Source: Amphiscolops sp. MND2022
Taxonomy: Eukaryota
Direction: 5' to 3'
DNA length: 64,000 nucleotides
NCBI GenBank assembly: GCA_964187785.1
Contig: OZ076409.1
Location: forward strand, 22,694,001-22,758,000
Position numbers and translations under genes: made by a program. Positions within the stretch are counted from its first letter, which is position 1, and every line of letters begins with the position of its first letter. Below the pieces are notes generated by a model. The model did no database searches, was not told the DNA's origin, and saw only the letters and a program-made list of their open reading frames with translations. Shown piece by piece: positions 32,101 to 64,000 of this stretch.

Positions 32101-35100
32101 CAAATGAAGGGGGACCCTTTGGTGCAATCCAAAAAGTTTCAAAAAGTCTCATAGTGCCGAAAAAAAGTGGGGCTATGTGGGCATTCTTAGTGTGTTTTCG
32201 AGGTTCTGGACGTCTGTTTTGTTTTTTCTTTCCGTTTTGGACGCGCTTCTGAGGTTGGAGTTGTTGAGGTTTGACGTTGTTGAACAAATGAACAAAAAAG
32301 TGGACCTTACGCGTCTAAAAAAAACTACCCACTGTAAGAGTCGGGCACATTTTCTACTAAAATGCGCCGACTAAAAACATGCATGCGCTTTGGGCAGAGT
32401 GTCTTGTTTTCATCAAGCGGGATGAACTAGAATTGCGTAAACTAGAAATGACGTAGATGGAAACGAATTAAAAATCGTTCTATTTTGCGTTAGTTTTTGC
32501 TGCAAAGGCGTCCATATATTGAAAATTAAGTAAGTTTCTCAATTTTAACAGTTCAATTATGGCCAGTCAACTCAATTGCCTCCTAAGATGCTATTAAAGT
32601 TTGGAAAATGAGTCTGTTGATGCTCGGACATCATCTAGGCATCTTATTGACGCAGACAAAGTATTTAATTGCAATGACGACGCAGCAAAAACAGCGAGCA
32701 CTTTTTGTTGCAACAAAAGCAGCCATATCAAAACTACCAAAAAGATTTTTGTCGTATTTATTGTATTTAACGTTTCAGACCAGTTTCCTTCAGCAGAGGG
32801 ACCGCATTTTTTCAGATTTGGTGAATATGGATTTTGAAAAAAATCTTAAGCAATTATTTAACTCCAAAGAAAACAAACTTCTAGCGTCATAAATTGAAAT
32901 TGTGCTTCTTCCTTTTGAGCTCCAGTTTAATACATTGTAGAAAATCTTTTTTTTCTTTTAATTAATTAGCTCGAGGCATGTGCCTTTTCGTTAAAGACAA
33001 ATATCACGCAAAATCGTACGATTCTACCAATTTTACTAACTTTATTCGACGGATGTATTTGTTATTGTTCGTCGCTAGCTGGTATTTAGTTGGGAGAATT
33101 TTTTGTGGAACTGTGCGACTTTTTGAGAACCTTTTCAATTCACTGGTTTATCTGCTTTTCGTTTTTTCAAATTTTTTTCTGTTAGAAAAAACTCGTTTCT
33201 ATCTTTAGGGGTCCACTTTTCGCGTTATTCAACACAGTGAGGCTTTTTTCAAATTAAAAGAGTCTCTAATCGCTCAACTAGAGTGTCATTATTCTAATGG
33301 GGTCTGAAACCCTATTCTTTGTATAAAAGAACCGATATTTGAAACACAGGTTCGATGTTCATGGAATAACTATTAACACTCTTTCTTTTTGTACACGATG
33401 AAGCCTTTGAAGTTAGGGTGAAAAAACCTGAATTGATAATGGGCTTACTTTGTTTTGGAAAAATCCAGACCAAAACCAGTAAAAGCATTTGGTAAAAGAT
33501 TTTTTTTGACAATTGATGGAACTTCTGACTACGTATCATAATTGTGATGTCTTGCAAGTCGTTAATTTATCATTGCATGGTCTCGCGAGATTCTTGCAAG
33601 ACTGACATCGGCTCGCAAGAAACTTTCAAGAATAACATATTTTTGTAAGACACTTGCAAGACAACTGCAAGATTTCATTGTATATAGGGCCTCTGAATCC
33701 ATAGTTACTCAGTTTTGCTAACAGTATTCCATGGTCTAATGAATCAAAAGCTTTCTGTAGATCTATAAAACAGGAAATTCCACTTGATTTTTTATCAATT
33801 TCATTAGAGGTGAAATTGATAAAAAATCAAGTGGAATTTCCCGTTTTATTGATCTACAGAAAGCTTTTGATTCATTAGACCATGGAATACTGTTAGCAAA
33901 ACTGAGTAACTATGGATTCAGAGGCCCTATATTCAATATAATGGTTGACTATCTTTCAAACAGATCACAATATGTATATGCGAACGGGAATCGGAGTGAT
34001 ATTGCCAAAATAACAACTGGAGTACCACAAGGGTCAGTTCTAGGTCCCTTCTTGTTTCTCGTATATATCAACGATTTGCCCCAGATCCTTGGAAACGATA
34101 ACAAGATGGCACTTTTCGCTGATGACACATCCATAATCAAGTCTGGAAAAACGAATTGTAACATGCAAAACGACTTAGATAAAATTTGTGATTGGTTCAA
34201 TTATAATAAAATGTCACTGAACACCTCGAAATGTGAAACCATGTCATTTGGTAACAACTATCAAAATACGCTCACAGTTCAAAACGAAGCCATGCCACGA
34301 ATCACATGCTGTAAGTATTTGGGTGTGTTGATTGACTCGAAGTTGACTTACAGAGATCATATTATTTACGTTGTAAAGAAGCTCAATAAATTTTGCGGCC
34401 TGATATATAGAGTTCGGGATATCTATCCAATAAAATGTCTATTGTTGTTTTATAATGCGTATGCTAAGTCTGTAATTTGCTATGGACTATTGGTTTATGG
34501 AAGAGCGGCGAAAACGAACCTTACCAAAATTGAAATGGCACAGAGGAGAATTATCAGAGCTATTTTATTCAAAAAGAAGTTTGACAGCTTGCAAAACATT
34601 CTGCACCAAACCACTTTAAATACAGTTTTTGAATTGTTCATTCAGGATGTATTTCGAGAAATCTTTATTCAACTGAGATCTAATAGTACATCGAAACTTT
34701 CGAAACTCATTGCTGAATGGAAACAACGAAAAACGCGAGGATCGATAAAAGGCCTCTTGCCATTACCCTACAGCAGAACGAAAAGTAAATCGAAGTCAGT
34801 TGAGCATACACTCATCAAAGGCTACAACTGGTTATTGCAAACGGATTTAATGCCTGGTAATATCGAAACCATGACCCAAACGCAAATCAAAACGTACCTG
34901 AAAAATCTAAATAGGCTATATATTACAGATAGTAGTGAACTTTTTGCTTTGTTTTTCCAATGATAAGGTCAGTCGCTGAAATTGAATCACAGCCGAAAAA
35001 TATACTCTTCACATTAGTTGATCAATAAAGGATAAAAGCTTTATTGTGTGAGATAAAGATACTTCTGAAATAGGAAGGTTAGATATGAGTTGGACTGAAT

Positions 35101-47100: not shown

Positions 47101-49258
47101 TTTCAACCGATATTAAAAGCTTCAGTGTTTTACCTAGTTTGATAATATTATTTCAATATTTTCACGTGGTTATTCAATTCAATGTTTTTAATTCAATCCC
47201 ATTTCTTTTTCACAAACATATGTTCCGTTTCTTTATCACAGTAATGTAGGTGGTAGTGCGAATAACAGCAAAGTACTTGTAAACAAAATGGCTGTTTGTT
47301 TTACAACTTATTCATTCTCTTGACACTTTTGATAAGACTCTTACCAAGATTCCTATCAAGAATTTCAAGAGGGTTGTGTGAAGCAAGAATAAACAAGATC
47401 TTATCAAGAGTTTCAAGAGTAAACGGGAATATGTAAGAATATGCAAGATCTTGGCAAGAGTTTCAAGAGTTTCTACACTGGGGAGGAATGTCACAAGGTG
47501 TGAATATTTTGAAAAATAGTTTCATGATTTAAATTCATATTTTTTCTTTCAGCCCAAAATGAACGATGACGTGCTTCTTCTGGTTGGAAGCAGCAAAAGT
47601 GTGTACCTGAAAGTGTTCAATGGCAACTGTGAACAACTCTGGGAGTTCAACCTGGATGAGCCCAAGATCCAGGGTCGCAAATGGAGGCAGGTTCTTCTAA
47701 TCATTGATTTTGGCGGGACATACAGTTTTGTAGAAAAAACCTTCGTTTCATGTGTGTTTGTTCGAAAAATTTTCCGACTTGAAATAAGGTTCTGAATTTT
47801 TGCTACAATACTAATTGTACGATGTTGGAAAAAAATTCTAGCTCATAAAAACTCAATAGAAAATCAGAAGTAGTCTGAACCACATTTGAAATACCAACCT
47901 GAAACTTTATCGTAGCCGTAGATCCTTCAAACTGTCTTCCTAAAAAACTCTCGACTGTTATCTACAAAAATTTGATCGTGCATTTTTGATTTCCGAAGAA
48001 ACTATTCAACATTCCTGCATATTTGGGTTCTCGATATGAGGAATCTTGCAGTTAATACCATGACTGAAGTTACTTTGCATTAAAATGACGGTAAATTCGA
48101 TGGCGTCTCATCTGCATGGAAAATTTTCAAGAAAATTCATTTTCCCAATTCGGTTGGTTTGGACGTCTAATAAGTAAATTTAGTTCTGTTTTATTGAGTC
48201 GACTTATTGGATAAGTTACAAGTTTTCAAAAGCCCTTGAAAGGAGTTTTCATTTGCTTATATTCGGATTTACGTCCTAAACAGGTGAGGATTTATTAGAA
48301 TTATCGTCAGAATTTCGGAAGCCAGAATACGTTATCATAATTTTTCGCACAATTTTGCATACAAAATTTTTTCAGCAGGTTGAAGCATTTTGATTTTGAA
48401 AACGAGTAGAAATAGTCGTTTTTGGGTGAAAAGAGCCTTTATATTAAGTCTCGGCTGCTCCTAACAAAGGTATAGTGTTTTTTTATAATCTTAGAAATTT
48501 GTCCATCGTGATAAGATACGATCTTGGAATAATGTAATATCTTAGTAAGATCTTAATAAGAATGATTGGTTGCCAAGATGTAGTAAAAATTTGGCAAGAT
48601 CTTGCCAAGATAACCAAGATCCTAGTAAGAGGGTCAACCCGGGTACTATCTCCACATAACGAATTTTTGATGAATCTCTCAAGCAACTTGATAAAAGTTG
48701 AATGTAACAGGAAAGTTTAATGCATGAAAGTTTCTCTGAATTGTTCAGAAAGTCATGAAAAAATTGTCGGCAACTTTAAAGTGCATGTAAAAAATTAATG
48801 CAACTCCAAAAAGGACATGGAACCATATGATTACTTGCCTGGAAAGTATAGTTTGCATGGATTTCATGGAAAGTGTTGTTGTCATGATTTCATGTATACA
48901 ATCGCAAAGAATCGGGTTGATCATATACATGGTTACACGTATAGAAACTTGCTTGAAACTCTCATGAATCTGGATCCAGGAAGACACACTATTCGAGTTT
49001 TTTAATTAAAAACTTTTAAATCAAAATAAGGGAAAGTCTGTTTTTAGACCGCAGGACACCACTGTGGATAATGAAGGAAACTTCTTGGTACTCGACAGCA
49101 GCGGGAGAAAGGTGTTGATTTTCAACAAGGAGGGCAAGTACTGCAGTCAGTTTGACCCCTTCTCCATAAGGTCAGGTCAATGCTCCAGACTGGCTGTCAA
49201 CTCAGAAGGTCACGTGATTTTAATGGAAGCCTCAAGAGGACGGATATCACTATATTAA
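11076..49258 (+). CDS. TRIM-NHL protein gene (RING, B-box, coiled coil, 6 NHL repeats; NHL-1/Abba-like), 10 coding exons, ~687 aa
   Basis: join(11076-11145, 11488-11756, 25185-25389, 26505-26630, 36556-36984, 39122-39263, 40239-40434, 41271-41552, 47553-47686, 49048-49258) = 2064 nt. Every junction is phase-compatible, there is no internal stop, and domains are in canonical TRIM-NHL order. Confidence 0.85.
11488..11756 (+). CDS. TRIM-NHL exon 2 (remainder of RING, Asn/Ser-rich linker)
   Basis: Acceptor CCTTTTCTGTAG; PLIISCGDTFCRRC...CPCC; donor GTCAGT, phase 0. Confidence 0.88.
12848..13760. mobile_element. Non-autonomous TIR element with CCC...GGG termini and 2-bp TSD (CMC/EnSpm-like), nested in an older palindromic repeat
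   Basis: 12-bp TIR CCCGGGTTTCCC / GGGAAACCCGGG with TG on both flanks; internal ~33-bp repeats in both orientations. Host inverted arms near 12820 and 13920-13947. Confidence 0.8.
13947..14780 (-). mobile_element. Helentron-type (HINE) non-autonomous element cluster with three stacked 3' termini
   Basis: The terminal sequence AACAAGCCGGGAACGGCCCAAGT(C/T)GGCGC recurs at ~13947, ~14192 and ~14489. Confidence 0.75.
15731..16542. repeat. 180-bp higher-order tandem repeat (~4.5 copies) of six ~30-bp subunits
   Basis: Sequence recurs exactly every 180 nt. Subunits of 31/29/29/29/31/31 nt share a TAACGTCTAAAATCAC-like core. Confidence 0.95.
16545..17315. repeat. Older diverged ~170-178-bp tandem repeat (~4.5 copies)
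   Basis: A TGGTTTCCACTGTTCCCCAGTTTGCCCCAT-like motif recurs near 16550, 16726, 16904, 17076 and 17246. Confidence 0.8.
18701..19815 (+). mobile_element. Head-to-tail HINE array with 518-bp period
   Basis: 18701-19005 is essentially identical to 19219-19523. The HINE 5' end TTTTTAGTCGGCGC occurs at ~18982 and ~19500. Confidence 0.8.
21002..21684 (+). mobile_element. Complete Helentron-associated non-autonomous element (HINE/DINE-like)
   Basis: 5' T-run plus AGTCAGCGC; 3' GCGCCGACT plus hairpin GCCGG-TC-CCGGC plus TTGTT; no TSD. Internal GC-rich hairpin near 21492-21528. Confidence 0.8.
23833..24367. mobile_element. Foldback-type MITE with inverted arrays of a 17-bp unit
   Basis: GCGACAACTCATATCA(A/G) repeated at 23835-23953 and inverted at 24257-24367, around an AT-rich core. 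Confidence 0.8.
25185..25389 (+). CDS. TRIM-NHL exon 3 (B-box-like zinc finger)
   Basis: Acceptor TTCTGTTTAG, phase 0; CSGC...HCPHCGQAVCPVCK; donor AAG|GTAGCT, phase 1. Confidence 0.85.
26383..26484 (+). CDS. Candidate alternative exon 4a, paralogous to exon 4b
   Basis: TTGTCAG acceptor and CAAG|GTTGTT donor; 102 nt, phase 1 to phase 1. Encodes DSEHSLQSFERNHQS...AQREGQG, with the same EH-x5-ER-x-H-x-S pattern as exon 4b. Confidence 0.55.
26505..26630 (+). CDS. TRIM-NHL exon 4b (end of B-box, start of coiled coil)
   Basis: Acceptor TTTGTTTTCAG; GEHKMLVLERLHTS...AQLKLQG; phase 1 to phase 1. Confidence 0.85.
26654..26737. repeat. Perfect spacerless palindrome with 42-bp arms
   Basis: ACGAAAAAGGCCGTGGCTGTGATTTTAACAGCTCGGTGATAT followed by its exact reverse complement. 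Confidence 0.95.
26939..27724. mobile_element. Mutator/Foldback-like non-autonomous element with inverted 15-bp minisatellite arms
   Basis: TCATTTCACCCCA-based arrays at 26948-27118, inverted at 27498-27716. GGT...ACC termini; 9-bp TSD GCCAGACTC / GTCAGACTC. Confidence 0.8.
28739..28892. repeat. 33-bp minisatellite (~4.7 copies)
   Basis: GAGTATGCGGCATCATGCGGATTGACTACTGAC in tandem. Confidence 0.92.
29108..29749 (+). mobile_element. Probable solo or partial LTR containing a decayed gag-leader ORF
   Basis: Decayed coding segment MGNRRNRRSKELDSP...SEDEDDPLKASDMKE...EEDYH ends at ATCACA, paralleling the DEDHD/CGACA LTR end of Gypsy element 2. Left boundary (TGTGAT at 29108) is uncertain and no TSD was found. 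Confidence 0.45.
31866..32377 (-). mobile_element. Complete HINE-like element
   Basis: AACAAGCCGAGAACGGCCAAAGTCGGCGC at the left and GCGCCGACTAAAAA at the right. Confidence 0.8.
33677..35245 (+). mobile_element. 5'-truncated non-LTR retrotransposon (CR1/L2 group) with a 5' inverted duplication
   Basis: RT ORF runs to a stop at 34963; the 3' UTR ends AATAAA plus short CTTTCAA-type repeats. 33677-33803 is the reverse complement of 33811-33937. Confidence 0.9.
33803..34963 (+). pseudogene. LINE reverse transcriptase, C-terminal part (open frame, N-terminally truncated)
   Basis: [28 protein letters not shown], LFADD and KYLGVLID motifs. Confidence 0.93.
35379..35848 (+). mobile_element. Complete HINE-like element
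   Basis: TTTTTAGTCGGCGC ... GCGCCGACT-TAT-GCCGT-TC-ACGGC-TTGTT. Confidence 0.82.
36556..36984 (+). CDS. TRIM-NHL exon 5 (coiled coil)
   Basis: Acceptor ATTCACAG; helical DAEIQKIKAAIEKAKMLIIEEMDKRKESLIKEV...YGALK; donor AAG|GTTAAT; phase 1 to phase 1. Confidence 0.88.
39122..39263 (+). CDS. TRIM-NHL exon 6 (linker into the NHL domain)
   Basis: Acceptor CTTTCGTTTCAG, phase 1. The phase-2 donor CCG|GTTACA was chosen because it matches the next exon, so the exact donor is less certain. Confidence 0.7.
39482..39691. mobile_element. 210-bp MITE with CCC...GGG termini and TC TSD
   Basis: CCCAGTGTTCGAAACCATGG versus CCATGGCTTCGCACACTGGG; TC on both flanks; internal CTTG(A/C)CA(A/T)GAT repeats. Confidence 0.88.
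40239..40434 (+). CDS. TRIM-NHL exon 7 (NHL blade 1)
   Basis: Acceptor TTTGTTTGCAG; DYMCVLKDDRVAVSCMEESAVFVYD; donor AAG|GTATGA, phase 0. Confidence 0.85.
40920..41270 (+). repeat. Three diverged ~100-135-bp tandem copies of the intron 3' end before exon 8
   Basis: Each unit has CATGTTTC..TAGAATG and ends CATCCATGTTCCA; only the last copy ends in CAG. Confidence 0.8.
41271..41552 (+). CDS. TRIM-NHL exon 8 (NHL blades 2-3)
   Basis: Acceptor TGTTCCAG; ELVNPISLTASTNKIFVYD...IAIFDSSGKY; donor GTAGGT, phase 0. Confidence 0.88.
42672..43271 (-). mobile_element. Complete HINE-like element
   Basis: AACAAACCAGGAACCGCATAAGTCGGCGC ... GCGTCGACTAAAAA; internal sequence shared with the 21002 and 35379 copies. 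Confidence 0.8.
45161..45360. other. Assembly gap (200 N)
   Basis: Run of N within TRIM-NHL intron 8. Confidence 1.
46460..47482. mobile_element. CCC...GGG-type TIR element (GA TSD) enclosing a Tc1 fragment
   Basis: TCCAGTGTAAAAACTCTTG versus CAAGAGTTTCTACACTGGG; GA on both flanks; CAAGA(T/A)TCTT subterminal repeats. Confidence 0.75.
46720..47246 (+). pseudogene. Tc1/mariner transposase C-terminal remnant with right TIR
   Basis: YTNILAAHLLP...LLQQDNAPP; frameshifted WFLENGVDVLENWP/SPDLNII; end NRGGFNRY-stop at 47116; probable TIR end ...CACAGTAATG followed by TA. Confidence 0.85.
47553..47686 (+). CDS. TRIM-NHL exon 9 (NHL blade 4)
   Basis: Acceptor TTTTTCTTTCAG, phase 0; DVLLLVGSSKSVYLKVFNGNCEQLWEF. 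Ends at a GC donor (47687) or alternatively a GT donor (47691). Confidence 0.8.
49048..49258 (+). CDS. TRIM-NHL exon 10 (NHL blades 5-6, stop)
   Basis: PQDTTVDNEGNFLVLDSSGRKVLIFNKEGKY and RLAVNSEGHVILMEASRGRISLY-stop match the NHL consensus. Confidence 0.9.
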
Positions 49259-49467: not shown

Positions 49468-51875
49468 GAATTTTGATTGACTATATCTTCACTGATCGGT
49501 CACTTGAGTGTTTGAAAACTGTTATTTTTGAGACCCCTATTAAATCTAAACATTTAGCTACGGTTCTGATCTGCAACAAAACATCGAAGAAAAAACCCAA
49601 TTTATCCTTTAAAAATTATTTTCGAAAGAACATTTTGACAAAGATGTTTTTCGTGCTAAACTGAGAGAGCTCAATTGGAACCTTTTGTATACAATGAAGT
49701 CACCAGATGAAATGATGTTTCTTTTTCACTCAATGCTATCAAAAATCATTAATCAATGCGCTCCTCCCAAAACAGTCTTCATCAGGAAAAATAACCTGAA
49801 CGTTAAATTGAAGAGCGATGCAATAATCAAGAAAATGTTTGCTTCTACAACTTCGGAGAATGAGAAATGGAAAATAATAAACGATATTAGGAATTCAACA
49901 AATTCGAACACTTACATTCACAGACTAAAAATTTCTTTCGGTGAAATAGTGACGAATAATAAAAAAATGGCGGATTCAATGAACTATAGATTTTCTAGAT
50001 TGGGAGATTATTTCGGAAAGAATCAACCTCAGAATTATTGCAAGAGAAATGAAAACAATTTTTATTTTCGCTTCATAACCTCACAGGAAGGCAGAACTCA
50101 AATTATGAATCTCAGCGTTCATAAACTACTCGGTCCTTCTTCAATTCCAGCCTGGGCGCTTCGTGATGGATGTTCGGAATTGGTAGAGCCATTAACAATG
50201 ATTTTCAATTCATTTATTAGTCAATCTAGTTTTCCAACATTATTCAAGAAAACGATCGTGACACCTGTGTACAAAAAAGATGATCCTGAAAATCCTGACA
50301 ATTATCGACCCATATCCATAACGAGGGCAATATCTAAAGTTTTCGAAAAACTACTTCATAACCAAAATGAAACCTATGTGAATGGAAAAAAGCTATATAC
50401 TCCAACACAATTCGGTTTTAGGAAGAACTTTTCATCAATTGACGCTCTGTTGTACTGCACGGAAAAATTTTGATGCTACCTTGATGAAAATTTATTCGTT
50501 GCAGCGGTAATGCTAGACTTATCTAAAGCCTTCGACAGCATAAATCACGAAATACTGACCCATAAACTCAATTTATTGGGATTTTCCTCATCGGCCTGTA
50601 ATTTGATAAATTTTTTCTCGGATCAACGCATACAAAAAACTGTAGTTAACAATTATGAATCAGATTGGATTGAATTACATCAGGGTGTCCCACAAGGAAC
50701 AATACTTGGTCCACTACTTTTCAATCTCTACATTAATGATCTAAGGACGAATATTCCAGAAAATTGCGAAATAATCCAATACGCTGATGACACCATGCTC
50801 TTTACCGCCGATTCCAATCTAGACACTGCTTGTTCTAATATTGAAAAGGGCATTGAAAAAACTACTGAGTATTTCCAATCGCATTTTTTTGAAGTGAATG
50901 CTGACAAAACTGACCTGCTCATACTGAATAAACCCATCCACAACACCCTAACGGAAAAAAAGTCCATCAAAGTCTCAAATGAATCTATCATCCCATCATC
51001 AAATATTAAATATCTAGGTGTCATTTTAGACAGAAATCTTACCTTCCAGGATGAAGTCAAATCGATACTTCAGAAGATGGCATTTGGTATCAAGACAATA
51101 AATAGTATAAAAAACTGTCTTCCCATAAATACCCGGTTACTTTTAATGAAGGCAATTATCGTTACCCATATCCATTATCCTGCAGTACTCCTCAGTGGAA
51201 TATCATCCTCCTTGCTTATTTCCCTGGAAAAGCAATTAAGTTGGGGAGTGAAAATTTGTTTCAATCGAAGAAAATATGACCGCTCATCTGACCTCAAGTT
51301 TGATCATGGAATCTTACCGGTTAAGTTTCTTCTTGATCAAATTGCCATCTGTTTTCTCTGGAGAATTTTCCATAATATGAAGCCGGCGTACTTTTCAATT
51401 ACTTACCCTACTAACAGTTTTTGTATAAACAAAAGAACTTCATTAGCTTTTTAATCGTTTTTACAGATGTGTTTTCCTCCAAAAATGCTTTTTTGAAACC
51501 AGCAGTGATTTGCTCAAGAAATTTCATACCTTTTTCCGTGATACGTATAAACAAGAGCCTCCGGACAATTATAACTCCTATAAAAAACATGTGAAGTCCT
51601 ACTTAATGAAACAATTTGAAAAAGATAATTCAGTTGCAGCCTATGGAAAGGTTTCTTGGACAGACTTTAGATTTAGTTAATTATGTGTTAATTATGATCT
51701 TATGTGACTGTCTGTACGAAATTCTTAAAATTTGTAATACGCTACCCTTAAAAAGTTTATGTTGCAATTTAATAGCATACACTTTTTGGGAATTATAGTG
51801 TTTTTTTTTGAACTGCAAATGGCACATCATAGCCTCTTCTCGTCTCATTTTTTTCACAATCAAATCTGCCTAAAA
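49468..51875 (+). mobile_element. Decayed 5'-truncated non-LTR retrotransposon (CR1/L2 group)
   Basis: End of APE domain (LIDYIFTD); PVYKKDD...[43 protein letters not shown]. In-frame TGA at 50471 and frameshifts. Confidence 0.93.
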
Positions 51876-52470: not shown

Positions 52471-54060
52471 TGTCGCAGGCTGCCTCCTGCGATGGTAATC
52501 AATACCAAGTTGCAGTCAGCGATCTGGATAACACTCCCCTAACTCCTGGAGTGTTGCCAATCTAGGCCGCGTGGACCATCAGTCCACGTTAAAAAGACTC
52601 TTATAAACTTTTAGCTCTTACAAGCTGGCCTAATACAATTTTATGCCGTTATGGACCGTAGGTCCGCTTGCCTTATTGCGACGTATATTCGCGTTGACAT
52701 TTTGGTATTTAACTTACAAGGTTTCAATATGATTTTAGTCTAGTTATCGATTTTGTGATGCATACATTTACACATGTATTTACGTACATATATACGCATA
52801 CCCAATGTTAACCAGAATAGCTTGATGCTTTAAGTTTGCGAAAGAACGTGATAAGATATTGCATAAAAGCAACTGGAAAGTTGGAAGGAAACGCGTTCGA
52901 ATTGTCCGCCACGTTGGTCAATTTGGACGCGTAGTCCGCTAATTATTCAACCATAGTACAGTGCTATAGTATTCTTTTTAGTCTCACTTAGTTATTTTGG
53001 ACTCACATGCTGGTCCGTTGCATGTAAATCATTTTTACTACAATGTAAACAAATTGATGTGAAGTGAATGTAATTGGGACTTGAAAGGCATGCCGCCTTT
53101 ACGCCCCCTCACTAGATCAACCCTTTCGCGACCCAAACAGTTCCTTTTTATATCCAAATGATGTAATGATGACGTATGATCCGCAAGGACATTATCCCTA
53201 GATTTGATACTTTTTTTAGAAGCTTGACACCAGGAAAAGTGCTTGTCATTCTCTCCAAAGTTTTTATACGAGGGTCACGTAGACCACAGGATGATGATCA
53301 TTATTGCTTACACACACCTGAGTATACTCACCTCTGATAAGCACGCTCTACGAATTGTATATGTGGAATTTAGACCTATAGTCCCAATCAACCAATTGAA
53401 CCTACCAGGAGAATAATACTGTTTGTTCACTATAGTTTTCAGTTCAAATCGTTATAAACTACATACGGCGATAAACTGTTGTCCAAAAATATTTCTTCAA
53501 TGCCCACAACTAGAAAATAGAAAGCAAAGGAAAGACGTTCTAGACAAGTGGACCTAAAGTCTAACTTAGAAATTGCAGACGTAATGTTGGGTTCCTATTC
53601 AAGGAAAAGCATTTCAGGAGATAGAAATGACCAAGTGGACTTCGGGCCCGACAGATCTAGACAAGACATAATTCAAAATAGCGAAGATTTCAGGTCACTT
53701 CTAAATCCAAATAGTAGAGAAACGAGTGAATCTACCATTGAAACCATGAGACTAGTAATTTCTGAAGTTTCCAAGAAAATTGATGAATTGAAAAGAGACT
53801 TAAACACTCAATTAGTGGAAACTCTTAATTCAGAAAATAGCGAGAAAGTCTTTCCGAATATCCAAAAAGACCAGTCAGAATTCTGTGTTTCAGGAAGAAG
53901 TGGACCATAGGTCCTGTAGACTTAGCAGGACCGCAAAAAGAGAAAAGAGCTGGGAATGCTTGGAAAACTAACTCAAAGCTTATTTCGGCCAACAGTAGTG
54001 AGCGTGACTCCGTTAGGGGAATCTCAAATGTTTCACAATCAAGTGATGAAGACCACGACA
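52471..54060 (+). repeat. 5' LTR of Gypsy element 2 (~1590 bp)
   Basis: Inverted termini TGTCG...CGACA; followed by AGGTGACAGGAG (a TGGTGACAGGAG-type PBS with first base changed); homologous to 62606 onward. Confidence 0.8.
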
Positions 54061-55150
54061 AGGTGACAGGAGCCAACCCTACAACTCGTACGGTTCCTGA
54101 TTTATTACTGGAAGTCCCATGCACTCCCGCATTGAACAACAAAATCCCCCACAAGGTCATTCTAAGGAGAATATCCCGTTGACCCCAGAGACCAGCGCCA
54201 ACGACAACTCTGATCCTATCAGGCGCCTTGCAGACGTGCTAGTCTGAATGAACAGCAAATCATCAGCACAAACACGGATGGTACACCCGGTCAGCACCAC
54301 AACACTTCTGATGCCAAATCAGAAAAAGTCAAACTCTTTGAAGACCTCTTTCATACCATGATAAAAATGCAGCCAGAAATGACGGAAATGATGAAAATAA
54401 ACCATTTTCATTCCCTATTAAGAAGAAATGTCCTATAAACGTTTCGTGATATTAGCACTGCTAATAGACAAACTTGTGGAAGATGTACTGGCGGTCTCCC
54501 GACGAAAGTACGCCAAACCATATTCCCAGGCAACTGCCAAGCACAAATGGCACAAATTGGTGTTTGTTCCAAACACTATGAAACTACCGGTTATTCTTGA
54601 GGAATTAAATCTGGGTGCGGAAAAGGCGTTCGGTGAAAACGCCCAGGCGATGATTGACAGCCTTTTATGCGCCAAATTGCTGCCAAAACTCAAAAGGTCA
54701 GTCAACATGGCACGACTGGAGAACGCCTCTTACGAGGAAATTGTTACCCATTTGGAGCGAGAACTAGAGCTCAATGGACTTGAGGGAGGTGACGACATTC
54801 CAGTACCCACAATGTCCACTGCCCCTACAGCAACACGACCGTGAACTGGTCTTCTTTCTTCGGGCATCACCTGCAGTTATTGCAAAAAACACGGGCATGT
54901 CAAGGACGACTGCCGAAATTTCAAAAGAAAGAAGGAACAGAAACGCAACGAAGGGGAGGATACCAAAAAGGGAAATCCAAAATGTCTGACTTGCGACAAA
55001 AACGAACCACCCGTTGAAAAAGCACCGGAGCCCACCTCAAACCCAAAAACCTCAAACTGGAGGACGCAAAACAAGACGTCGCATCCCCCAACCAAAATGA
55101 TACCAACAACAAGCAATTCACTTCTATTTTAAAAAACCCAAAAAACAAAC
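53500..55150 (+). pseudogene. gag of Gypsy element 2, beginning inside the LTR
   Basis: ATG at 53500 (MPTTRK*KAKERRSRQ...); capsid-like KHKWHKLVF...LERELELNGLE; knuckle CSYCKKHGHVKDDC; A-rich possible frameshift site near 55130-55147. Confidence 0.8.
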
Positions 55151-57890
55151 TTTGCCACGACTCCAATTTACTGAAAAACTACCTGTCAGACAGTATCTAA
55201 TATCTGACCCTTCTACTGTATTTCATTCTGAATATTACTCTTCACTTCAGGAAACCTCCTTAGCTGTCTGGCAGCAGCAAATGAGAACCACTCCTGCTCA
55301 ATCTCATACTCCGGACCACAGGTCCAACGGACTTGACTCGACTACAACCTCTATTTGTACCTTCCGGTATTAGATGAAAACAACCCCTTTTATACAGACT
55401 ACGGTGTAGACCCCTACTGGGACATTCAACTTTACAATCAACATGAGATACACTTTTATGGAGATTTCAACAAGGAAGACGCAGACATAGAACCCGACTG
55501 TCCCGTGACTGATAGGGCTTTAAATGACGTCTTGATCAAAGAACTACTCGACCCTTGGCAAACAAAAACTACTCCTTGTGCTTCACCAGCACAAGATGAG
55601 CCAGAAGATGAATTCCCCAACCTTAGACCACAAGTCTCTTTGACTACAGCAGTTGAAGCACGATTTGTGATCACCCTGGTCACAAGAAATAGAGAACCAG
55701 ACTATGTACCGCTGACAACCAATCTTGACCTCAAATATAAGCGACGAATGCTCTATTTTCCAATCCCTTTTGGCGAACTTACATTAGATGGATTTGTAGA
55801 CACGGGAGCTCTATCTAGCGCTATCCCTGACGCTGATCTACGTAAAATCCGATTATTAGCCCTCAGTCATTGTCAAAAAGGGCCCAGCACCCAATTTCAA
55901 AATAATGGTAGCAAATGGGCAGTTGGAAACTTCGACGAGCACTGTCGAACTGAGATTTGAGGTTGGCGACATAGAGTTTCATCACGAAATTTTTTTGTAA
56001 TGGAGAAACTAACGAGTCCGTTGATTGATCTTTCATTCCTACAACGAAACAACACCATATTGGACATGCGACAGGGAGTAATAAATTTCCCGTTTTTCTC
56101 CATGCAACTGAAAACAGCAGATCATAAGTACACCAACGTCATGTATCCTACCTGTACCCAATCCCCGTGTAGGATATCACAATTCTCCCTAACAACTAGT
56201 CACGTTGACCTCACAAAGGTGTGAATTGGCACTGTAGAATCTCTGTAGAATTGGCACTTCTGCAACGTTGCAGGATAATAACAACTCTCCCATTTTCAAA
56301 ATATGCGTGGCGATTTGTGCCCAAAAGAAACCTAATGGCAAATTACGACTACTAGTCGACCTTCGGAAGATTAACAATCTCATCTCAGATGATTATATCA
56401 ACAACAATCATCCCGTCAGTACGCTGACTGATGCCGCTCTACATATGGCAGGCAAAAAACGCTTTTGCAAAATGGATTGCTCACCGCAATGGCGGACCAA
56501 AGGCCGATAGAGATGCTGGCGTTCATTTTTGCCAGCAAAACCTTTGAATATCTGATTGTTATCAGCCTTTTCAAACTTTATGCGCGATTACCTTGATAGC
56601 GTTATCAAGACTGATCAATTCGCACAAAAAGTCGACGACGCAAACGACGCTTAACAACTCATCAAGAACCTACAGGCCACTTTCCAATGCATCCGAGATG
56701 CAGGTTTGAAGCTTATCATGCACAAATGCCATTTTGGTGCAACGGAAATCGATTGCCTGGGTCGGGCCGTTTATCCGGTTGGTTTGCGGCCGCAACGACC
56801 ACGAGTCTGAAAATTCTCGAAAACACCGAATTTCCAACTTCTAAGAAAACACTTCAACAATACCTGGGATTTCTCAACTATTTTTGAAACTAACTCCTTA
56901 GGTTTTCAGAAAAACTGACTGACTCCGTTCCTCAAACTCCTGAAAAATGATGAAAACTTCCTGATAACACTGGAACTGTTGTAAAAATTCACCGAGATAA
57001 ACAAGGCCCTTGACCGTTGTTGCGAATTAGCGCTTAAACAACCTCTACCAATAAAGCAAAAAGCCCTCATGACTGATGCCAGCTTCATGGCTGCTGGGTA
57101 TGCAGTCCTGATTGAGGATGACCCACAAGAAAAGTACACTTCAACGAGGAAAACCTTTGCTCCGGTAGCCTACGGCTCAAAGACCATCAGTCCCGCACAG
57201 TTAAAAATGTCCATTTATGCAAAAAATATCTTAGCAAAATTCATTGCCTTCAAGGAATTGGGACATATCTTCCGGGGGACCCCAAGACCGGTGACAAAAG
57301 TAACAGATTACAAATCAGTTACACGTTTTTTTTTCAAACAAAAATCATTCCACCGACGCTTTGGAATGCATGCGACTATGTAATCCAATTCAACTTTACT
57401 ATTGCACATATTCCGGGCAAGAACAACACGGCAGCTGATTATTTATCACGCCCAGAAGTCTCTCCGAAATAAAAATTGATACTTCCAATTAGAGAAGATA
57501 TCCCCACAACGCCAATTGAACTACACGTTCAATCAGCGGGGGTCAATGAAGAGGAACAAATCTTCAAATCTTCTACTCTGAAGATGATGACGAAACAGAA
57601 GAACAAATCTGGCAACGAAAGAAACAGGTACGGGAAAGCCCTACCCACCAACTACCGGATATTTCGTTTGAAAAATTCAGCACTCATAATGGCAATTAAT
57701 ACAAAATTTCAACCTGTTAAAAACTAGCCAACACAGTAGCTATGGAACAAAATAACGATGTCATTTTACAGCAACTCAAACTCAAAATACAGAAAGAAGA
57801 ATATTCAGAAACGATTTTGATACAAGGTACCAGATACCAACACTACCTACGTGAATTCGACTGGATGTCCATTCAAAATGAAATAATTAT
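55150..57890 (+). pseudogene. pol remnant of Gypsy element 2 (protease, RT, RNase H; truncated before integrase core)
   Basis: LDGFVDTGALSSAI; KPNGKLRLLVDLRKIN; FCKMDCS; LQQYLGFLNYF; MTDASFMAAGYAVLIE; AHIPGKNNTAADYLSR. Confidence 0.92.
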
Positions 57891-58145
57891 GTATGAATAT
57901 TAAATTGCAAAGTCTGTTTCTTGTTATCTGTCCTCAAGGACATGTATTTTACTTGGGACTATTCCGACTTCTTTTTTGAAATAAATACTCGTCGACAAAG
58001 CAATTTAGTGACGTACAATACAAAGGCCACAAATAACAACTGCAAAGTCAATGGCAAACATCAAACAACGGATACAACATGTAAATACAACAAGTCTACA
58101 TGGTACAAAGTTACAACTATGGGGCTAAATGTACACTATGTACAA

Positions 58146-61100
58146 TTAGTCTTTACTGGTGCACTGACGAACGTTTTTGGCACTCTGGCTAATTTCATCC
58201 TCCGACAATAGTTGAGTAGGCCGCGCATGCTTCTTGGAGAAGCGAAGCGTACTGAGGGAATGCTGAACGTCATTTTCGCTAGCAGATTTCTCCTTTCTAG
58301 CCCTGCATTGGAACTTGTTCCCTGGATCAAGTTTATATAAGATCTCTGTTCGCCCGAAGTAGTCCAATCCCAACAAAGGGTCATATGTGTCGCTTAGGGC
58401 ACGCCTACTGAATGTGGATTCAAGTTCGAGTGAGTCCGAAATGGAGGCATCGCTAGTAACAGTCTCAATGGAGTTCACCACGTTGCTGAAGAACAATTGG
58501 ACCGGCAGTACAACATCGACTAGCTTGCTGGTGAGGTCATCGGTGTTGACACAACCGATTTTAACAGCTGGCAAAGTGCGGAATGTTCCATTTAGACAGA
58601 GGCAAGCGAGCTAAAAGCCTTGCAAAAGTAATGGTTGAGAATGTATTGTCGACTCTTCCATGATGAACTTCACAGTGTCAAGAATTAGAAAGATTGGTTG
58701 GTCAAACTCAGAAAAATTGACCCTGAGTTTATCCACGAACGACAAATATTCCTCCTGCGCCTGTGAATGCTGATCCGCAGTGAAGTAGCCCCGCAGACTG
58801 AAGGTAGTGAACAACTTGCTGTTACACCGGGTAACATGCGCAAGCGGCAGCTTCAAAAGCATTTCGAGGTCGAAGCTTCCCAGTCCTTGGGTAATCAGCG
58901 TTGTGAAGTCAAAATGACTTCTGGTCTCTTTGAAGAGGTGCGTGACGTGGCTTCTTGCCAGTCTGCCTTACTCCTTCTCGTCTTGGCCTGGCTGTCAGTT
59001 CTCAAATTGATAGATTCTCTCCTTTCGTCTCGTGTTTCTCCACCTCCGCCTTCAGTTTGCACGCGTGGTCCAATTTGGACTCAATCTTCAACCGATTGAG
59101 GAAGACAGTGAAACTTAGGGCAGTGGCAACAGAGATTTCGAGGTCGAGAATCCCGTCGATGTCGTCTTCGGAAGGCGGAGATTTTGGCATGACCACCCTC
59201 TTAGCCAGCTTGCGGAGATATAGAAATAAATGTCTATAGGTGTGAAAGCCTCTGTATCGGCGTCCTTGGAGGCTAAGAGTATCTGAACAAAGTAACTTGC
59301 GCGTTGCACACCTTTTTTTGCTGGTAAACAAAGTTACCCCAAAGTTCTGAGTCCTACTGAAGGTACCAATTCTAGTAGTCAGAATTTGAATAACGTGTTG
59401 AAAGATTTTACCATTATGAACAACTGTGACCGAGACTATGGAAAAAGAAAAAGCAACCACTAGTTTATAATATCTCAAATCACTAACAGTCACGGACCAA
59501 CTTGTAGAATGGTTCCAAATGACACGTAAAGAAGTCATCGAGGATTATCGATCACTTGAGACTTTGTGGCTAAAACGAAAGAGCTTGTTGCAGAAACTTG
59601 GAAAACGACCATAGGTATGTTGGACGAAAGGAACCCTACCTATTTTCTCACTCCTTGCTTTTGCTGTTGGACGGCGTGGGTAGTCAGAAAAGAAGTGATT
59701 GACTTCCAGTGGGCAATCAACTGTTGGCAAAAGGTTGGTATAGAAGGGATGTCAAGTTTGCTCGACTTTATAGCCTGAACGTGGAAGGCGAAATTGAGTA
59801 CCAGAACTAAATATAGGTAGACTGGAAGAAGAGAAATACTAACTTTGACAAGTTCAAGAATAAACAACGTCCCCTCCATTTGCACACTGCCCCCCCAGAG
59901 AGATGCCCAGATACTGGAGGACCAAAAAGACGTCTTTTCGGCCGAATATACCGTGGCTGTCCTTGTGCATCAACTTCCTGATGGCAATCTTGTCAAAAGT
60001 GGTGAGTCGTTGGACCCCAAGTCTGGACAAAGCAGAGTTATCAATCAATTGTACCAGGTTGAAGGAAGCCCCAGAACAACACACTAATTTTGCTTCCGGC
60101 GAAATAGCAGCGTGTAAAACGAGTGTAAAACGAGTGTAAAACGAGTGTAAAACGAGTGTAAAACGAGTCTGAGAAGCAGTCTCCAAATCCATCGCGGCGT
60201 AAAAGTCATCCTTGGTATTAGTCCGATAGGCCATTGGACCTCCACGGGTACCTTCCTCCTCATAGTCAGTTTTGCCAATGTTTTCTTCCTGTAGTGTAGG
60301 TTGCAGTTCAGTGGTTGGTCCAGGGGTTCTCATTGTAAGAACAATCGTTGCATCAGTCTCAGTGTTTGTCTCGTTGATGCTTCTTGGGGTTCAACTGGAG
60401 GAGTGCTGGTCTCTAAAAACGTGACGACGGGTACGTCCTCCGCAGTTTCATCAGCTACCTCAGGGTCACTCAATCCGGGAATGACGTGTGCAGGGTCACT
60501 CACGCTGGCCTTGCCTCGTTCAGAAAGTTCATCATCATCCTCAACGGTGATAGTGACCTTTGCTCCTAGCAACTCCATTTTGTGCGTGAAATACGCCCAA
60601 CAACTCTCTGTATCGCTGATAGAAGACAGTTCAATGACGAGCTGCTTGTCTGTGGTACTCTTGGGCGTTTCGACGTCAGGAACTTGAACATTTTGCTGAG
60701 GATCAACGTCCACATTTCGCCTGATTCATGATTTGGTTGGCCGCTCATTTCTTTGCCTAAACGGAAAGAAACAAATTCAAGCGATCCACTTCCACTATCT
60801 AAGTTTATTATCTGTTCATACCTATGGTTGAAAATTTCGCAATGGAGGAAGTGAAAACATAGTCAATGGGAAGCCATGATCAAGATCAAAATTGACTAAA
60901 AATTTTAAAAGAACTACTTTTATGTTTGTCAAAATTGGCAAACAAAACTTGTATGTCGAGTTTCAACTACTGGACTTAGATGCTGACGTCTGCAAATTGG
61001 GAAGATTGCTGTTGAATTGGAATTGGGGATCTGGGGTAGGCTGCGGGACACATTTGAACTCAGTTCGAAGTAGGTCGGACAGACTCACAGTCCGAATATT

Positions 61101-61174
61101 GGAAATCTGCGGGAGTTGCTGCAACTGTGACAAAAGTTGCAAAAGGTTGATCTGTTGCGATCCACAGAGCTAAT
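58146..61174 (-). pseudogene. Antisense multi-exon accessory gene(s) inside Gypsy element 2, unknown function
   Basis: Chain of minus-strand ORFs 60748-60330, 60333-59854, 59885-59640, 59320-59002, 58862-58146 (the last with one internal stop). GT-AG introns 59843-59775 and 59651-59570; strong acceptors at 61175, 60757 and 59321. Confidence 0.6.
60112..60168. repeat. 11-bp tandem repeat (5 copies)
   Basis: GTGTAAAACGA x5 within the antisense ORF. Confidence 0.95.
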
Positions 61175-62085
61175 CTGCATCAGGAGAAATAAAATAGGTG
61201 ATTCGAATGAGGAAAGAAACGAGGAAACTAATGAATGCAAATGCTGCGCTGTTGACTGTGATTGTTATCAAACTGGTTTAAGACGCTCGATGTCAAAATA
61301 ACTGCAAGTACCAGTTACTTATACCTACTTATTACTATCATACTCGACTTTTGAGACGGTTAATTATACAATTATCATGTTTTTAAATCATTTCACATTA
61401 AAAGACTTCTTGGCTTGATGCAAGTTGTTTTATTATGTCCGTGGTTATAAATCCTTTCATCTATCTTTCATCGTGATTTTTGGTGTTACAGAATCTGCCA
61501 GTGTTGTATACTCAAATTTGATTCTAGTATCAACTTGACCATTGTTACCATCGTTCATTTTTCATCAAATTCCAACATTCTAATTTTTTACTCCAAACTG
61601 CTTCAGTCCTTTGCTATCAAGTATTTCAATTTTTCACGCAGATGTTTCATTCAGAAAATTCATTCATTCATTGGCAGAATTTGATTCGGTGGTTAGTCAA
61701 AGCTGGTCTCGCGGACCGGTGGTCTTTGAAGGATATTGTTGACGGCAGATTAGTGTTAGTAAACATCTTTATAACCAATTAATAACACTATCGCTGTTGA
61801 TGAAGCCGCTTGAAAGTTCCTCAAAGGCTACGTGACTAGCGAGTGGTTTCTTATCAAAAGAAAAGAGAATTCCGATTGACTTTCCGAAAAAAAGGAAGTT
61901 TCAAGAAAACTTCGAAAAGTTTGTTTTCGGTTTCTCCGGCTGTGTTTCCCGCGGAAATTGTAATTTTTGACTTGGGGTCTCCTAGCCTGAAGCTGGCATT
62001 CATCTTAGTTCCTGTTTGCCAAACAGTCGACCCTTTAATCTACAAAACTGCCGAGAAGTTCTTCTTGAAAAAATTTCAATTAGAA

Positions 62086-62700
62086 ATGTCTCTACATTTC
62101 TCTGTAGAGGATTCAATTAACCCATTGGTTAGCCTATCATAAGTCTCCTCAGAAGAAGATATGGGGATAGATGATCCCCCATCTGTTATCGAAGTGGACA
62201 ATTCAGACAGTGACATTGAAGTAATAGCGTGTTGTATAGAAGTACCGACCTCAAGACCACTGGGCGTTGCTGGACGCTGCATGACAACCGAGTTATCAGA
62301 AGATGAAGACGAATTTTCCCTGTTCAAAGGATTGTACGGCTCATCGATTAGGGAGGTTTCAGAAAATCCACAAATAAGGCGCGTAGCTATTACTACTAGC
62401 GGGATTTGGGGAAAATCCGGATCAAATCTCTCAAGGAAGTTGCATAGTATGCGGCCAATTGGCTGATACCATAAGAGAAAATTTACGTTCGATTATCTGG
62501 AAAGAACCCACATGGCGGGAGAGACATACTTTGTCCGCCTCAGAAGGAGAAAGGCGTTCCAAGCAGGGATGCAAACAGGTTCTTTTGTTCTCGTACCCAG
62601 GGGAGTGTCACAGGCTGCCTCCTGCGATGGTAATCAATACCAAGTTGCAGTCAGCGATCTGGATAACACGCCCCTACCTCCTGGAATGTTGCCACTCTAG
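62086..62700 (+). pseudogene. Extra sense ORF (~204 codons, two internal stops) crossing the PPT into the 3' LTR
   Basis: ATG 62086, ORF 62161-62466 and ORF 62512-62700 are all in one frame. Acidic N-half, basic C-half. Confidence 0.55.
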
Positions 62701-63809
62701 GCCGCGTGGACCATCAGTCCACGTTGAAAAGACTCTTATAAACTTTTAGCTCTTATAAGCCGGCCTAATACAATTTTATACCTTTATGGACCGTAGGTCC
62801 GCTTGTCTAATTGCGACGTATATTCGCGTTGACATTTTGGTATTTAATTTACAAGGTTTCAATATGATTTTAATCTAGTTATCGATTTTGTGATGCATAC
62901 ATTTATACATATGTTTACGTACATATATACGCATACCCAATGTAAACCAGAATAGATTGATGCTCTACGTTTGCGATAGAACGTGGTAAAATTTTGCATA
63001 GAAGGCACTGGAAAGTTCACGGGGAAACGCGTTTGAATCGTCCGGGCCGTTTTGGTCAATTCGGACAAGTAGTCCGCTAATTTAGCATCCAATCACAGTA
63101 CAGTGCTATAGTATTCATTTTTGTCTCACCTAGTTATTTTGGACTGCATGTCCGTTACATGTAAATCATATTCACTGCAATGTAAACAAATTGATGTGAA
63201 GTGATTGTAATTGGGACTTGAATGGCATGCCGCTTTTACGCCCCCCTCACTAGCTCAACCCTTTCGCGACCCAAACTGTTTCTATTTATAACCAAATGAT
63301 GTAATGATGACGTATGATCCGCAAGGACATTTCCCCTAGATTTGATCCTTTTTTCAGAAGCTTGACACCAGGAAAAGTGCTTGTCACTCTCTCCCAAGTA
63401 TTTATATGAGGGTCAGGTAGACCACAGGATGATGATCATTTTTGACGCTCTAGACTAGTGGACCTACTGTCTGACTTAGAAAATGTAGACGTAATGTTGG
63501 GTTTCTATTCTAGAAATGAATTAGAAAGCAATTCAGGAGATAAAAATGACGTAGTGGACTTCGAGTCCGACAGACCTAGACAAGACATAGTTCAAAAAAG
63601 CGAAGATTTCAAGTTACTTCTAAATTCAAGTAGTAGAGAAACGAGTGAATCTACCATTGAAACCATGAGACTAGTAAATTCTGAAGTTTCCAAGAAAATT
63701 GATGAATTAAAAAGGGACTTAAACACTTAATTAGTGGAAACTCTAAATTCAGTAATTAGTGAGAAAGTCTTTCCGAATATCCAGAATACTATGACCCGTC
63801 AGAATTCTG
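62606..63809 (+). repeat. 3' LTR of Gypsy element 2 (internal ~240-bp deletion, truncated at right)
   Basis: Aligns to 52471-~53885 (6 mismatches in the first ~130 bp, more further on), lacking ~53300-53535. Followed by a HINE-family fragment at ~63815-63912. Confidence 0.9.
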
Positions 63810-64000
63810 TTGTTGTGAAACTGTCTTCGGCATTGTGAAACCTTTTTGCGGAAACAAACTTCCCAAAAGGCCCCCTTCATTTTTTTGGAGTTTTGCGACA
63901 GAATGGATGTTGTTTACATGCGTTTCGGTCAGAAAGTTGCCCCAGTGGTTTAGTGTCAAATCATTCGGTATGCACATCTCAAAGTTCATGAATTCACAAT

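Follow-up and report, generated by a model that had tools for sequence, protein, structure and literature searches.

How does a gene with introns come to lie on the antisense strand of a long terminal repeat (LTR) retrotransposon, and does such a gene belong to the element at all? The question is raised by a decayed LTR element that spans positions 52471-63810 of a 64,000-nucleotide stretch of contig OZ076409.1 (assembly GCA_964187785.1, positions 22,694,001 to 22,758,000), which we call the window. A first-pass annotation had read the minus-strand open reading frames (ORFs) in this element as an intron-containing accessory gene of a Gypsy-type LTR retrotransposon, in a host that it presumed to be an animal. 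An LTR pair, gag and pol remnants, and minus-strand exons between pol and the 3' LTR are indeed found there. Comparison with copies elsewhere in the genome (1.07 Gb) indicates that the antisense accessory gene is real, ancient, under selection and intron-containing, and this supports the accessory-gene interpretation. The window's own copy, interrupted by five stops in frame and by two indels that shift the frame, is evidently a pseudogene.

With the last exon of the window's gene as the query, 150 scored matches were obtained in the genome (44-100% identity), and in many of them the frame stays open for 380-430 codons. When 1.84 billion representatives were searched with a profile, 578 proteins matched at an E-value of 0.001, and the ten that were checked are all without a name. 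Two proteins found in this way are about 32% identical to the window's group and to each other, and they led to 107 and 117 further matches in the genome. Three others had no match in this genome at strict cut-offs and may come from other organisms. The three last-exon queries together place the antisense gene at about 370 scored sites, which is a lower bound. Longer-length searches with the last exon produced no full-length homologue, which counts as weak evidence, and scans of JGI metagenomes and IMG/VR produced no confirmed relative.

We fetched 47 loci through the antisense gene, chosen for diversity and long frames and hence not at random. A sense-strand integrase adjoins the 3' end of the gene in 39 of 40 loci (the exception is truncated) and in all seven distant loci, which brings the total to 46 of 47 loci with an integrase on the opposite strand. 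In two of the distant elements the LTRs are 99.5% and 99.3% identical. The segment therefore occurs across the family as an accessory gene of the lineage, as had been proposed, and is not a one-off insertion. Distances between genes also follow distances between integrases (Spearman 0.81, 0 of 2,000 permutations, 41 loci), although this shows co-descent only, because kin share labels.

The exon-intron structure was derived from an alignment of 35 copies, the window's included; 13 copies stand outside it, seven of them distant and six rearranged or partial (12 from the 47 fetched loci, plus another copy that is truncated or rearranged). The aligned copies have five coding exons, and the eight coding splice sites are GT or AG in 30-34 of 35 copies. 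Exons 2-5 mostly measure 486, 135, 82 and 1,145 nucleotides (nt), and the introns vary in length. Seven of the 35 copies read through all five exons without a stop and encode 1,226-1,331 amino acids. Among six subfamily representatives exons are 64-71% identical and nearly gap-free, and introns are 40-46% identical with more gaps. Splicing and expression of the gene are inferred from these patterns.

In the window the gene lies on the minus strand. Its last coding exon (58146-59282; 1,145 nt in most relatives), which encodes the helical region, is broken. Intron 4 follows upstream at 59283-59487 (205 nt, 69-211 nt in relatives); its acceptor 59283 (AG in 34/35) is the true last acceptor and pairs with donor 59487 (GT in 33/35), a donor absent from the first-pass annotation, which had instead suggested an acceptor at 59321 (AG in only 2/35). 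Exon 4 (59488-59569) has 82 nt, as it does in 33 of 35 copies. Intron 3 had been placed at 59651-59570 with 82 nt. The acceptor 59570 was right (AG in 34/35), but the conserved donor is 59639 (GT in 33/35), which shortens the intron to 70 nt (59570-59639). A GT at 59651 is present in 34 of 35 copies, but it opens a valine codon whose third position is free, and the sequence that follows is coding-like. Exon 3 (59640-59774) has 135 nt, as in 32 of 35 copies, and intron 2 (59775-59843, 69 nt) is exactly the intron proposed, with GT in 32/35 and AG in 33/35. Of the two remaining acceptors suggested earlier, 60757 is confirmed (AG in 33/35) and 61175 fails (AG in 7/35).

Only the 3' half of exon 2 is left in the window (59844-60109; 486 nt in relatives), and the predicted three-strand sheet region is mostly lost. 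An internal deletion near 60110-60165, marked by five tandem copies of an 11-mer (60112-60166, no strand assigned) opposite a gap relative to other copies, took out the zinc finger together with intron 1. Upstream of it on the minus strand, comparison with relatives identifies a remnant of coding exon 1 (60167-60756, ATG at 60748) with an acidic, Ser/Thr/Pro-rich N-terminus. The exons are thus real, but in this copy the minus-strand ORFs cannot be joined to a continuous reading frame as the first-pass annotation supposed, because the five stops and two frame shifts intervene.

A further intron is likely to lie upstream of the coding exons. This predicted 5' intron (60757-60918, minus strand) has a decayed donor in the window; across the alignment the donor is GT in 33/35 and GTTGGT in 32/35. 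The downstream ATG is missing from nine copies, which belong to two subfamilies; every one of these has an ATG in frame directly before the 5' donor, and this compensation occurs in 0 of the 26 others. Within the predicted 5' intron, relatives conserve another possible start in the same frame, even in distant families, and therefore two N-termini are possible. The predicted intron also holds short near-invariant blocks (window 60800-60920 and homologues) that are kept in deleted copies and are candidates for cis signals on either strand. The adjoining region (60919-61300, minus strand) travels with the gene as judged from the cassette boundary described below, is likewise kept in deleted copies, and is likely to contain the 5' exon and promoter.

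Intron positions are retained between subfamilies that are only 32% identical. In four of the seven distant loci introns 1 and 2 match in position and phase and exon 2 again measures 486 nt, and one locus has all four introns; the automated intron search in these broken copies halted at intron 2 in three of seven or mis-called. In one distant subfamily (L104, L109) intron 3 is missing, exons 3 and 4 are fused (217 nt) and intron 4 is kept. An intron has evidently been gained or lost within the antisense gene of a retroelement. Antisense introns can persist because the packaged, reverse-transcribed RNA is the sense RNA, on which the introns of the antisense gene are not recognised and hence not spliced.

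The coding sequence is conserved by selection. Over about 800 codons, dS could be measured in two pairs, and the ratio of nonsynonymous to synonymous substitution rates (dN/dS) comes to 0.037 in each. The other 13 pairs are saturated at synonymous sites (pS 0.80-0.88, pN 0.13-0.32). For the N-terminal part dN/dS is 0.07-0.20 in three measurable pairs. Conservation of ORFs and splice sites among copies had been named as the check on the first-pass annotation, and the antisense ORFs pass it with dN/dS far below 1. The window's copy and its nearest relative differ at a dN/dS of 0.42, as expected after decay.

The gene has a history of exchange as well. Within one group, four-fold-degenerate sites differ by 7-11% in the integrase vs. 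65-67% in the gene. In intervals of 250 nt, identity of about 95% falls to 47-74% between the stop codon and about 450 nt upstream of the start, and then recovers. The gene and about 450 nt upstream are evidently swapped as a cassette between near-identical backbones. A second accessory ORF, which we call ORFx, forms a third module together with the first part of the LTR.

Some copies have dispensed with the gene. In 16 non-autonomous copies the two flanks are adjacent, and the ten examined lack most of the segment from reverse transcriptase (RT) to integrase and the gene body, and keep the flanks. In two of them the LTRs are 99.9-100% identical, and the two copies are 99.2% alike; with such young LTRs they have therefore been copied recently with help in trans. 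The non-autonomous copies L047, L048, L049, L023 and L025-L030 derive from the window's own subfamily, and some of them are very young. The full-length copies of this subfamily, among those seen, are decayed. Deleted copies could be imagined as spliced subgenomic RNAs; we rejected this because the breakpoints vary.

The element that carries the gene belongs to Ty3/Gypsy, as the first-pass annotation had it; this follows from the pol order protease, RT, RNase H, integrase in relatives. A young relative has identical 1,745-nt LTRs (TG...CA), a primer-binding site that starts with TGG, a polypurine tract and a 5-bp target duplication. Its gag has a CCHC knuckle, and its pol encodes protease, a weak dUTPase-like stretch, RT, RNase H and integrase; the dUTPase-like match lies between protease and RT (L136:2460-5801; E 0.0048, under the cut-off). 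Of these structural features the window's copy retains the LTRs, a decayed primer-binding site and the polypurine tract, with its right end truncated. The ends of the window's element were placed by homology to the copy with identical LTRs. All of the following lie on the plus strand: the 5' LTR (TG...CA, about 1.6 kb; 52471-54060), within which the gag ORF begins; a decayed primer-binding site (54061-54074) that matches the young copy's in position and sequence; a broken gag remnant with CCHC knuckle (53500-55132), recognised by a Pfam match and the gag ORF of a relative; a pol remnant with protease, partly deleted RT and RNase H (55101-57887), with the integrase at the same place in relatives; the polypurine tract (62596-62605); and the 3' LTR (62606-63810), truncated and internally deleted. 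The two LTRs align in a stretch of 847 nt at 90.2% identity and in another of 367 nt at 86.9%. The Pfam matches of the gag and pol remnants are zf-CCHC and RT_RNaseH. Compared with relatives the window's copy has lost about 0.7 kb of RT and, at 57887/57895, about 1.5 kb of integrase; over 1 kb is missing from the antisense gene. Between the integrase end and the antisense stop lies an AT-rich spacer (57895-58145, no strand assigned) that is retained in non-autonomous copies. Of 41 such spacers, 26 have poly(A) hexamers in the sense and 22 in the antisense direction; with no shuffle control and two spacers mis-parsed, this count is not used here.

ORFx is represented in the window by a plus-strand remnant (62076-62700); the window ORF 62143-62466 matches the family alignment by eye, and the remnant ends about 90 nt inside the 3' LTR. 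In relatives ORFx is a sense ORF of about 290 amino acids (e.g., L081:7443-8369, L110:6692-7696) with an acidic first half and invariant CxxCG and CDG motifs, 28-61% identical across subfamilies, and it is exchanged together with the first part of the LTR. By this conservation ORFx qualifies as a second accessory ORF. It has no Pfam or PDB match, and at a best hydropathy of 0.9-1.4 it shows no transmembrane segment of the sort that an env protein would have. At the other end, the gag ORF starts about 600 nt inside the 5' LTR and crosses the primer-binding site (window 53500-54060, 63444-63810). Hence, each LTR is coding at both ends.

What kind of protein does the antisense gene encode? The first-pass annotation was right about an acidic N-terminus and a helical end, and it missed, in the broken copy, that the full gene encodes about 1,250 amino acids with a zinc finger. 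About 400-490 acidic, Ser/Thr/Pro-rich residues are followed by a basic stretch and a C2H2 finger of the form W..CxxC..H..H, whose residues W492, C512, C515, H532 and H538 are shared by 95% or more of the 109 sequences compared. The exon 2 model has a helix, three strands, a helix and a strand, and the last exon is predicted to be helical. The best 19-residue hydropathy is 1.5-1.65, which leaves no clear transmembrane segment. The predicted architecture thus runs from an acidic, disordered N-terminus through a BED-like C2H2 finger and strands resembling those of RNase H to a helical C-terminus. No Pfam family passes the cut-off, and in particular PF04195 (TRP28) and SMC have no match in the protein. 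This agrees with the earlier view of an uncharacterised family, with the qualification that it may be a remote derivative of a hAT transposase.

The motifs of the protein led us to suspect such a transposase. With the last-exon model as query, Hermes ranks first among 48,161 chains (Z 5.7, root-mean-square deviation 3.9, 86 aligned, Hermes 426-567), and with the exon-2 model it ranks 31st (Z 3.1, root-mean-square deviation 3.9, 81 aligned, from Hermes 149). The two matches are colinear and in the correct order. They lie where expected given the Hermes triad, which we take to be D180, D248 and E572. The last exon also has Atlas leads to PF05699 and to GTF2IRD2-like clusters at 0.80-0.81, where scores below 0.9 are leads only. 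The finger aligns with local BED fingers by eye, at a profile E-value of 0.23 that is no better than in the reversed control and with no Pfam match to zf-BED. PF14291 matched nowhere, nor did it in the controls. By eye, strands 1 and 4 both lack an invariant Asp, and exon 2 has no CxxH; the invariant residues of exon 2 are E26, E28, S85 and G86, with a Glu in strand 1 and Ser-Gly at the expected Asp in strand 4. Beyond the last long helix, no acidic residue is conserved among the distant members. No inverted repeat of the gene region is among the window's 25 longest, and no search aimed at relic terminal inverted repeats was made. A complex prediction for the exon-2 and last-exon regions, run without alignments, scored 0.00, which we count neither for nor against an interaction. 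The genome itself has at least 150 matches to the hAT dimerisation domain, and long open hAT transposase ORFs are present at L111-L115 and L132 (Ac-like and one Tip100-like). On balance we consider a hAT origin of the antisense protein probable, and a protein of this origin would be catalytically dead judging by its residues.

Our preferred reading, to which we assign a probability of about 0.5, is therefore a Ty3/Gypsy clade with a hAT-derived five-exon antisense gene of about 1,250 codons, whose product is predicted to be a nuclease-dead, trans-acting DNA-binding regulator that aids expression of the element. A hAT element or transposase gene would have inserted backwards into the ancestral element. 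The gene is very probably transcribed from its own promoter between gene and ORFx and then spliced; since the upstream stretch travels with the gene, the promoter is likely to lie in the gap of about 1 kb that gene and ORFx share head to head. With reasonable likelihood the catalytic residues were then lost, the zinc finger and scaffold kept and the long acidic region added. The loss of the gene in mobile non-autonomous copies suggests that the protein acts in trans, and zinc finger and acidic region together suggest a DNA-bound transcription regulator. More tentatively, the protein might bind element DNA and recruit host factors via the acidic region, leading to more transcription or less silencing by analogy with VANC. 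Activation or anti-silencing is favoured because selection acts on a selfish, expanding clade whose alleles diverge and are exchanged. It is conceivable, if somewhat doubtful, that an LTR lineage domesticated the transposase of a DNA transposon, introns and all, on its antisense strand, made a nuclease-dead regulator of it, and has since traded its ancient alleles between backbones as a cassette while competing with the silencing machinery of the host.

Several observations weigh against this reading. The regulator function is a prediction derived from sequence, and the fetched loci were picked for diversity and long frames. Cassettes that are only 52-74% identical share the same ORFx and LTR, and the same cassette occurs with differing ORFx and LTR, so that protein and LTR types do not pair off as they should under a strict VANC model; this also disfavours a simple lock-and-key model. 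The structure models are poor, with a mean predicted local distance difference test (pLDDT) score of 45 for the last exon and 51 for exon 2. The Hermes Z values are within the chance range (XerD and an ADP/ATP carrier reach Z 5.0), and Hermes was outside the top 50 in a wide structure search with exon 2, which gave no Atlas lead either. Foldseek searches of the pdb and viral sets returned nothing at E 0.001, and a PDB sequence match is also lacking. Profile-profile comparisons of three regions with 12 local hAT ORFs, among which Tip100/Buster-type hATs are represented by a single ORF, stayed below 1% probability and were no better than reversed controls. PF05699 was matched by 0 of 72 family members.

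One could also argue, then, that the gene is real and selected but encodes a lineage-specific zinc-finger protein of other, non-hAT origin. All profile tests against hAT being negative, and the fold matches lying in a range common among unrelated helical bundles, speak for this. We nevertheless regard it as unlikely: two separately modelled exons both retrieve Hermes colinearly, the order of finger, helices, three strands and helical stretch fits hAT, and the Atlas leads point to two hAT-related families. A further alternative, a one-off nested insertion or chimera without function for the element, could appeal to the broken state of the window's copy. It is refuted by the presence of the gene throughout the family, a dN/dS of about 0.04, introns conserved across 32%-identical subfamilies and the correlation of gene and integrase distances.

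Two other explanations accept the gene and differ in what it does. The protein could be a targeting or nuclear-entry factor that attaches to chromosomal DNA by its finger and anchors the integration complex there. The scaffold of a dead transposase might be able to contact DNA ends or target sites, a part in nuclear import has been proposed for plant antisense ORFs in the available part of PMC7264820, and loss of the gene in non-autonomous copies fits action in trans. We find this distinctly unlikely, since very different cassettes occur with near-identical integrases (four-fold sites 0.07-0.11 vs. 0.65-0.67), a poor fit to a tight protein-protein partnership. Alternatively the protein could restrain the element or rival hATs as a repressor or dominant negative, and carriers would survive because they do less damage to the host. 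HBZ and other antisense proteins of retroviruses act as regulators in the nucleus (PMC11963269, available part), and the genome has at least 150 hAT dimerisation-domain matches. This is very unlikely in our view; members of the clade are numerous, some of them very young (LTRs 99.3-100% identical), and the protein is too diverged from the local hATs for detectable similarity.

Outside the element the window contains other repeats and ORFs. Upstream are an NHL-repeat ORF (49010-49258, plus strand) and a non-LTR-type RT ORF in two pieces (49613-51454, plus strand). Further away lie a 180-nt tandem repeat, inverted 16-nt arrays and a 132-nt hairpin (15729-16568, 26932-27715 and 33672-33942).

Antisense accessory ORFs of LTR retrotransposons, whose origin and function are unknown and which are mostly from plants, become testable in both respects with the family described here. 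It is a resource of hundreds of copies with deep diversity, young members, natural deletions and natural cassette swaps. It is also a clear natural case of introns that survive in an element whose replication passes through RNA; one of these introns was gained or lost over time. If the hAT origin is true, a transposase has been domesticated by another mobile element and not by the host. Standard ORF-based annotation misses this gene family of about 1,250 amino acids even though it is present hundreds of times in the genome.

Among known systems, bdelloid ORF3s and planarian Burro represent invertebrate Gypsy elements with non-env cargo (PMC5408684, PMC6431247); our elements carry such cargo too, in a host that is presumably an animal. 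The bdelloid elements carry a dUTPase, to which we have the weak match mentioned above (E 0.0048). Their cargo consists of enzymes, env-like or polyprotein domains, and an antisense intron-containing gene is not described in the available text of these papers. Nor did our literature search, which covered titles and the beginnings of abstracts and left subscription papers and repeat databases outside, turn up any LTR element, animal Gypsy included, whose antisense gene has several introns or derives from hAT.

The likeness to hAT elements such as Hermes and to their derivatives ZBED and GTF2IRD2/FAM200 lies in the BED-like W..CxxC..H..H finger, the predicted order of strands and helices and the weak fold matches to Hermes. 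In Hermes the BED domains bind subterminal DNA and are separate from catalysis (PMC10368747, available part). Unlike hAT transposases, our family has no significant sequence similarity to them, has Glu and Ser at the first two catalytic positions and no conserved acidic residue at the third (by eye), has an acidic N-terminus of about 450 amino acids, and is cargo of an LTR element instead of being flanked by inverted repeats or residing at a host locus. VANC, the favoured functional model, is likewise an accessory gene of a transposable element. The VANC proteins of Arabidopsis VANDAL elements (Mutator) are fast-diverging, sequence-specific regulators that act in trans (PMC5735166, available part). 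They differ in element class and in fold, which is MAIN-like in VANC according to the accessible text of PMC13547354, and in their tandem target arrays and protein-target co-segregation, which are not seen here.

A close parallel is offered by the antisense ORFs between pol and the 3' LTR of plant and fungal Gypsy elements, for which the available parts of PMC7264820 and PMC11963269 are our source throughout. Their origin and function are given there as unknown. Maize Grande gene23, rice RIRE2, Silene Retand TRP28, bean PvRetro13 and Botrytis Boty are all Ty3/Gypsy and have the ORF in the same position and orientation in most copies (PMC7264820; PMC11963269). The Grande ORF has its own promoter, and a nuclear or DNA-binding role has been proposed for the plant and fungal ORFs (PMC7264820; PMC11963269). 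The word "intron" is absent from the available text of the Retand survey, and a review notes that antisense ORFs are dissimilar to other transposable elements and urges a search for antisense transcripts that are spliced. Unlike these ORFs, our family shows no match to PF04195 or SMC, and its host is probably not a plant; it has about 1,250 amino acids, four or five conserved introns, a C2H2 finger and cassette swapping. The arrangement is a variant of the known antisense ORFs, and the protein family is new.

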